From assembly GCF_003334765.1 (NCBI RefSeq), contig NZ_QOWT01000002.1: a stretch of DNA of 64,000 bases. The stretch is one strand, 5' to 3'. Under the pieces are notes generated by a model, which worked only from the letters and a program-made list of their open reading frames with translations, was not told the DNA's origin and searched no databases. The DNA is from Escherichia coli. Its GTDB lineage: Bacteria; Pseudomonadota; Gammaproteobacteria; Enterobacterales; Enterobacteriaceae. Positions 1 to 1,388 of the stretch are shown here, one piece after another (positions within the stretch are counted from its first letter, which is position 1; each line of letters opens with the position of its first letter). Both the position numbers and the translations under genes were made by a program.

Positions 1-1388
1 AAACGCAGATCCAGAATCGCCTGAGCTTGCTGTTCGGTCAGGTAGTACAGACCATCACGCACGCCGAACTCTGGCTCCAGCCATTCCGGACGCGCAGCAT
101 CGTCGCCAGCACGTTCGAGCATCGCGGCAACGTTGCCCAGCTGCCACGGATTAGCAACCAGCGCAGTTTTCGCTTCTGCAGGCGTCGGCGCATGACGGAT
201 CAGTTCGATGATCGGGTCGATGTTCGCCAGCGCCACGGCTAATGCTTCAAGGATATGAGCACGATCGCGAGCTTTACGCAGTTCGAAAATAGTACGACGG
301 GTCACCACTTCACGGCGGTGACGAACAAACGCCGCGATGATGTCTTTCAGGTTCATGATCTTCGGCTGACCATGGTGCAATGCCACCATGTTGATACCGA
401 AAGAAACCTGCAACTGGGTCTGGGAGTAGAGGTTGTTGAGCACAACTTCACCGACCGCATCGCGTTTCACTTCAATCACGATGCGCATACCGTCTTTGTC
501 AGACTCGTCACGCAGCGCGCTGATGCCTTCCACGCGTTTTTCTTTTACCAGTTCCGCAATCTTCTCGATCAGGCGCGCTTTGTTTACCTGATACGGAATT
601 TCGTGGACGATAATGGTTTCACGACCGGTTTTGGCGTCAACTTCCACTTCTGCGCGAGCGCGGATATACACCTTGCCGCGACCGGTACGGTAAGCTTCTT
701 CAATACCGCGACGACCGTTAATGATTGCCGCCGTCGGGAAGTCCGGCCCCGGGATGTGTTCCATCAGCCCTTCAATGCTGATGTCTTCATCATCAATATA
801 CGCCAGACAACCGTTGATGACTTCCGTCAGGTTGTGCGGCGGGATGTTGGTTGCCATACCTACGGCGATACCGGAAGAACCGTTCACCAGCAGGTTAGGA
901 ATTTTGGTTGGCATGACGTCCGGAATTTTTTCCGTGCCGTCATAGTTATCAACGAAATCGACCGTCTCTTTTTCGAGATCGGCCATCAGTTCATGGGCAA
1001 TTTTCGCCAGACGGATTTCCGTATAACGCATTGCCGCCGCAGAGTCGCCGTCGATAGAACCGAAGTTACCCTGACCGTCTACCAGCATATAACGCAGCGA
1101 GAATGGCTGCGCCATGCGGACGATCGTGTCATAGACCGCCGAGTCACCATGGGGATGGTATTTACCGATTACGTCACCAACGACACGGGCAGATTTTTTA
1201 TAGGCTTTGTTCCAGTCATTGCCTAGTACGTTCATGGCGTAAAGTACGCGACGGTGTACCGGCTTCAGGCCATCTCGGACATCTGGCAGCGCACGGCCAA
1301 CAATGACCGACATCGCATAATCCAGATAGGAGCTCTTCAGCTCTTCCTCAATGTTGACCGGTGTAATTTCTCTCGCAAGGTCGCTCAT
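1..1388 (-). CDS. gyrA: DNA gyrase subunit A, N-terminal ~462 codons (rest of gene lies beyond window start)
   Basis: Reverse-complement from ATG at 1388..1386 reads [47 protein letters not shown]...; QRDR motif [11 protein letters not shown] present. The + strand ORF 255..1226 in the track is its antisense shadow. Confidence 0.95.

Follow-up and report, generated by a model that had tools for sequence, protein, structure and literature searches.

Results

The gyrA locus

The window (the whole stretch of 64,000 nucleotides of Escherichia coli DNA analysed here) opens within gyrA, which lies on the minus strand at positions 1..1388. A read of the sequence from 1 to 1800 places the gyrA ATG at 1388..1386, and the gene runs past the left edge of the window, such that codons 1-462 of 875 are visible and codons 463-875 lie beyond it. 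Conceptual translation of the visible portion yields 462 amino acids uninterrupted by a stop. Alignment to a reference gyrA, the check proposed together with the original prediction, revealed complete identity to the gene of K-12 MG1655 (WP_001281242.1) in both DNA (1388 of 1388 nucleotides) and protein (462 of 462 residues). The MG1655 annotation at the matching site has the start of gyrA, a divergent ubiG upstream of it and then yfaL; the ubiG open reading frame of the window occupies 1487..2257 on the plus strand, as indicated by the list of open reading frames and by the MG1655 annotation.

The fragment is conserved throughout the species. When positions 1..1500 were used as a megablast query on 5426 complete E. 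coli genomes, every genome gave a match, and in 5425 the match spanned 80% or more of the query. Among the matches listed, gyrA was annotated at each, and many strains, including K-12 MG1655, C600 and J53, were 100% identical to the query. Since every complete genome matches and gyrA is annotated among the matches listed, the reading frame is, on the strength of these sequence comparisons, a genuine gene rather than an ORF that arose by chance. Residues 1-462 of the window protein align to residues 1-462 of PDB entry 3NUH with zero mismatches in the printed alignment, and the full-length E. coli GyrA of PDB entry 6RKS matches across the same residues. All 462 residues are thus identical to those of proteins designated DNA gyrase subunit A that served for crystal and cryo-EM structure determination, as befits an orthologue, and this one-to-one alignment means that residue numbers in the window are those in conventional use for E. 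coli GyrA.

The divergent gyrA and ubiG genes are separated by an intergenic region, read from the sequence as 1389..1486. Within this spacer, approximately 45 nt before the gyrA start codon, lies an extended -10-like motif, TGtTATAAT (1441..1433, minus strand). A scan of the spacer for consensus promoters and terminators returned nothing, neither a canonical -35/-10 pair nor a -35 hexamer matching the motif. We regard TGtTATAAT as a putative extended -10 promoter, which would presumably correspond to the known supercoiling-sensitive gyrA promoter.

Codons of the QRDR

Numbered from the ATG at 1388..1386, codon n of gyrA starts at position 1388-3(n-1), placing the starts of codons 83 and 87 at 1142 and 1130, respectively. 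Reads of both strands, together with the codon computation, give codon 83 as TCG, encoding the wild-type Ser (1140..1142, minus strand; cga on the plus strand), and codon 87 as GAC, encoding the wild-type Asp (1128..1130, minus strand; gtc on the plus strand). Both codons had been assigned in the original prediction, and the assignments proved exact to the base; the 11-residue motif in which it had placed them corresponds, by translation, to GyrA residues 78-88. A frame or coordinate error at these two codons was considered and rejected, as the minus- and plus-strand reads, the translation and the codon arithmetic all agree.

The remainder of the QRDR, taken as codons 67-106 (1071..1190, minus strand, from the computed codon coordinates), is likewise identical to that of wild-type K-12. 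The residues Ala51, Ala67, Gly81, Asp82, Ala84, Gln106, Ala119 and Ala196 are all as in K-12, as is Tyr122 (codon TAT, 1023..1025, minus strand, by the same computation), the active-site tyrosine of GyrA that forms the covalent link to DNA. The fragment therefore carries a wild-type QRDR allele, with Ser83 and Asp87 in place and no substitution at residues 67-106, 51, 119 or 196. Comparison of the 462 visible residues with those of K-12 found no resistance-relevant substitution. The usual resistance allele at codon 83 is TTG, encoding Leu. At codon 87 the usual resistance alleles are AAC, encoding Asn, and TAC, encoding Tyr, and the commonest resistance substitutions in the protein are S83L and D87N/Y (PMC9917921).

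Allele frequencies among complete genomes

The frequency of wild-type and mutant alleles was estimated with 42-nt probes based on positions 1115..1156 of the window and built such that any change from position 1 of codon 83 to position 2 of codon 87 abolishes megablast seeding. The wild-type probe matched 639 complete E. coli genomes. Probes carrying the window's own synonymous core and differing from it in the resistance codons also found matches: 72 complete genomes with the S83L probe (TTG at codon 83, where the window has TCG) and 331 with the S83L+D87N probe (TTG, and AAC at codon 87, where the window has GAC). These counts, which give approximately 61% wild type and at least 39% mutant, describe only the 1042 genomes sharing the synonymous background of the window and are not a species-wide allele frequency, as genomes with synonymous variants or other alleles are left out of them. 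Resistant alleles of the same gene are frequent among the genomes searched, so the allele test could have gone the other way. The wild-type call is therefore informative, yet the wild type is the commoner, ancestral state.

Relationship of the window to K-12 MG1655

The window aligns to MG1655 as a single 64-kb segment, collinear from gyrA to nuoE, with 99.978% identity, 8 mismatches and one 6-bp gap. Beyond gyrA the gene order is ubiG, yfaL, nrdAB, yfaE, inaA, glpQT, glpABC, the rhm genes, ais, arnBCADTEF, pmrD, menFDHBCE, elaAB, rbn, elaD, yfbK-P, and nuo from N back to E. Because the whole of the window falls in one alignment whose sole gap is 6 bp, it contains no acquired or inserted DNA. 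Alignment and annotation likewise revealed no parC, parE, gyrB or plasmid-type quinolone-resistance gene in the 64 kb; the original prediction had placed parC outside the window, and parC is indeed absent from this K-12-collinear gene list.

Two of the single-nucleotide differences are synonymous (3252 in yfaL and 40958 in menD), one is intergenic (6520), and the others are missense: GlpA D100N (14906), Q107L (19185) and L155P (19329) in the ISNCY transposase-like YfaD, YfaV R115G (21772), and ElaD H343Y (45701). The gap is an in-frame 6-bp deletion at 3336/3337 in the autotransporter adhesin gene yfaL (ORF 2385..6131, minus strand), which removes one Asp-Pro unit from a DPDPTP proline-rich repeat linker and leaves a protein of 1248 rather than 1250 aa; it probably arose by repeat slippage. 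The 8 SNPs and the yfaL deletion indicate that the source is a close relative of MG1655 and not that MG1655 record. Among complete genomes, the closest to the first 25 kb of the window belong to the porcine ETEC strains ETEC4073, ETEC1706 and UMNF18 and to other K-12-like isolates. The best complete-genome match over 1..25000 is that of porcine ETEC4073, with about 2 differences as estimated from the bit score; by the same kind of estimate, which gives a few differences for each, no perfect match over this 25 kb is apparent among the complete genomes. The sequence thus suggests that the source is probably a K-12-like relative of phylogroup A / ST10-like type.

Discussion

The observations described above are best explained if the visible gyrA sequence represents the 5' half of a chromosomal gene carrying the ancestral, quinolone-sensitive allele, in a strain of E. 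coli that differs very little from K-12 (probably phylogroup A / ST10-like), a reading that we hold with near certainty. Nothing in the analysis contradicts a wild-type, quinolone-sensitive gyrA. In the mechanism that would account for this sensitivity, GyrA is the gyrase subunit that breaks and rejoins DNA, with Tyr122 covalently joining the cleaved DNA, and fluoroquinolones, which insert into DNA so cleaved, stabilise the gyrase-DNA cleavage complex. A water-Mg2+ bridge links the C3/C4 keto-acid of the drug to Ser83 and Asp87 on helix alpha-4, holding or positioning the drug. This bridge is drawn from the literature: the keto-acid chelates Mg2+, two of whose water ligands hydrogen-bond Ser83 and Asp87, and in E. 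coli gyrase the bridge, anchored by both residues, serves mainly to position the drug (PMC9917921).

With both anchors intact, the GyrA of the window would be expected to bind quinolones normally and to be fully quinolone-sensitive. The sequence accordingly supports the original prediction that gyrA should add no target-site fluoroquinolone resistance, with Ser83, Asp87 and every other visible residue matching the K-12 wild type. The primary fluoroquinolone target is unaltered at these positions, which argues against high-level chromosomal resistance. The call is a routine one of resistance genotyping at a textbook locus; it was already known in kind and adds nothing new on gyrase or on quinolone action. 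It holds for gyrA only. The susceptibility of the strain is not readable from the window, because parC, parE, gyrB, the efflux regulators and the plasmid determinants qnr, aac(6')-Ib-cr, qepA and oqxAB lie outside it.

It is for this reason that the strain could be fluoroquinolone-non-susceptible in spite of a wild-type gyrA, the cause lying in a plasmid-borne qnr, aac(6')-Ib-cr, qepA or oqxAB-type efflux determinant, in gyrB or parC/parE, or in efflux up-regulation through marR, acrR or soxR. The complete genomes closest to the window are those of porcine ETEC and other livestock isolates, and in E. coli populations of that kind plasmid-mediated quinolone resistance is no rarity. We nevertheless consider resistance of this kind unlikely, as mechanisms outside gyrA typically cause, by themselves, only low-level MIC rises in E. 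coli; were it present, it would still be compatible with a finding that concerns gyrA only. The more specific combination of a wild-type gyrA with plasmid-borne protection or efflux in a quinolone-resistant strain of porcine ETEC-like ST10 background appears less likely again. Were that combination present, gyrA genotyping alone would mislead, a situation that is already well documented and is not new biology. A resistance-relevant substitution might instead reside in the part of gyrA beyond the left edge, but this is very improbable: the QRDR and the few additional reported sites all fall within residues 51-196, and C-terminal polymorphisms such as D678E and A828S are lineage markers rather than resistance determinants. 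No established resistance substitution is known to map to codons 463-875, and a divergent C-terminus is unlikely in a gene whose N-terminal DNA is identical to that of K-12 and whose flank is 99.98% K-12-like.

The misgiving to which we give the least credence, and which we regard as scarcely tenable, is that the ORF encodes not GyrA but ParC or some other paralogue among the type IIA topoisomerases, in which case the codon numbering would not be that of GyrA. What distinguishes gyrase from topoisomerase IV is the C-terminal beta-pinwheel domain with its GyrA box; codons 463-875 of gyrA fall to the left of the window. In NCBIfam profile searches the fragment scores 784.4 bits against its top family, the equivalog TIGR01063 (gyrA), which is below the curated full-length cut-off of 877. 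This shortfall is explained by the fact that only 53% of the protein lies inside the window, covering profile positions 1-420 of 800. ParC, the A subunit of E. coli topoisomerase IV, is homologous to GyrA in its breakage-reunion domain and has an analogous serine/acidic pair, Ser80/Glu84, as the anchor of the quinolone bridge (PMC9917921, PMC3632122). It is, however, a paralogue distinct from the window protein, which scores only 494 bits against the parC_Gneg profile. Identity to K-12 gyrA and to the GyrA of the PDB entries, with numbering that corresponds one to one, the ubiG and yfaL neighbours, and the family scores together led us to reject a paralogue in favour of gyrA itself.

Other features of the window

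A 323-aa ORF (255..1226, plus strand) runs antisense to gyrA, wholly within its coding region, at a site where MG1655 annotates nothing; we take it to have arisen mechanically from the codon usage of gyrA.

An Rfam scan of the window identified two known RNA elements only, both far from gyrA, and a tRNA scan of the window found none. One of the two is naRNA4, a REP-derived nucleoid-associated RNA (9169..9239, minus strand, 76 bits), in the nrdA-nrdB intergenic spacer; it is situated amid copies of a REP/BIME-type inverted repeat that extend over 9121..9289, and a related copy is found between ubiG and yfaL (2281..2363). The other is the nuoG RNA cis-regulatory motif (62135..62177, minus strand, 50 bits) in the nuoF-nuoG spacer, its expected location in Enterobacteriaceae. 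Off-diagonal BLAST matches between the window and MG1655 additionally revealed a pair of direct repeats at 19581..19905, near yfaD and glpC, of approximately 130-140 nt and 89% identity.

The gene glpT, for fosfomycin uptake, is intact and identical in DNA sequence to that of K-12. A complete arnBCADTEF operon, together with pmrD and ais, lies at approximately 27000..36000; these genes, whose role in lipid A modification is relevant to polymyxin resistance, are free of SNPs relative to K-12.
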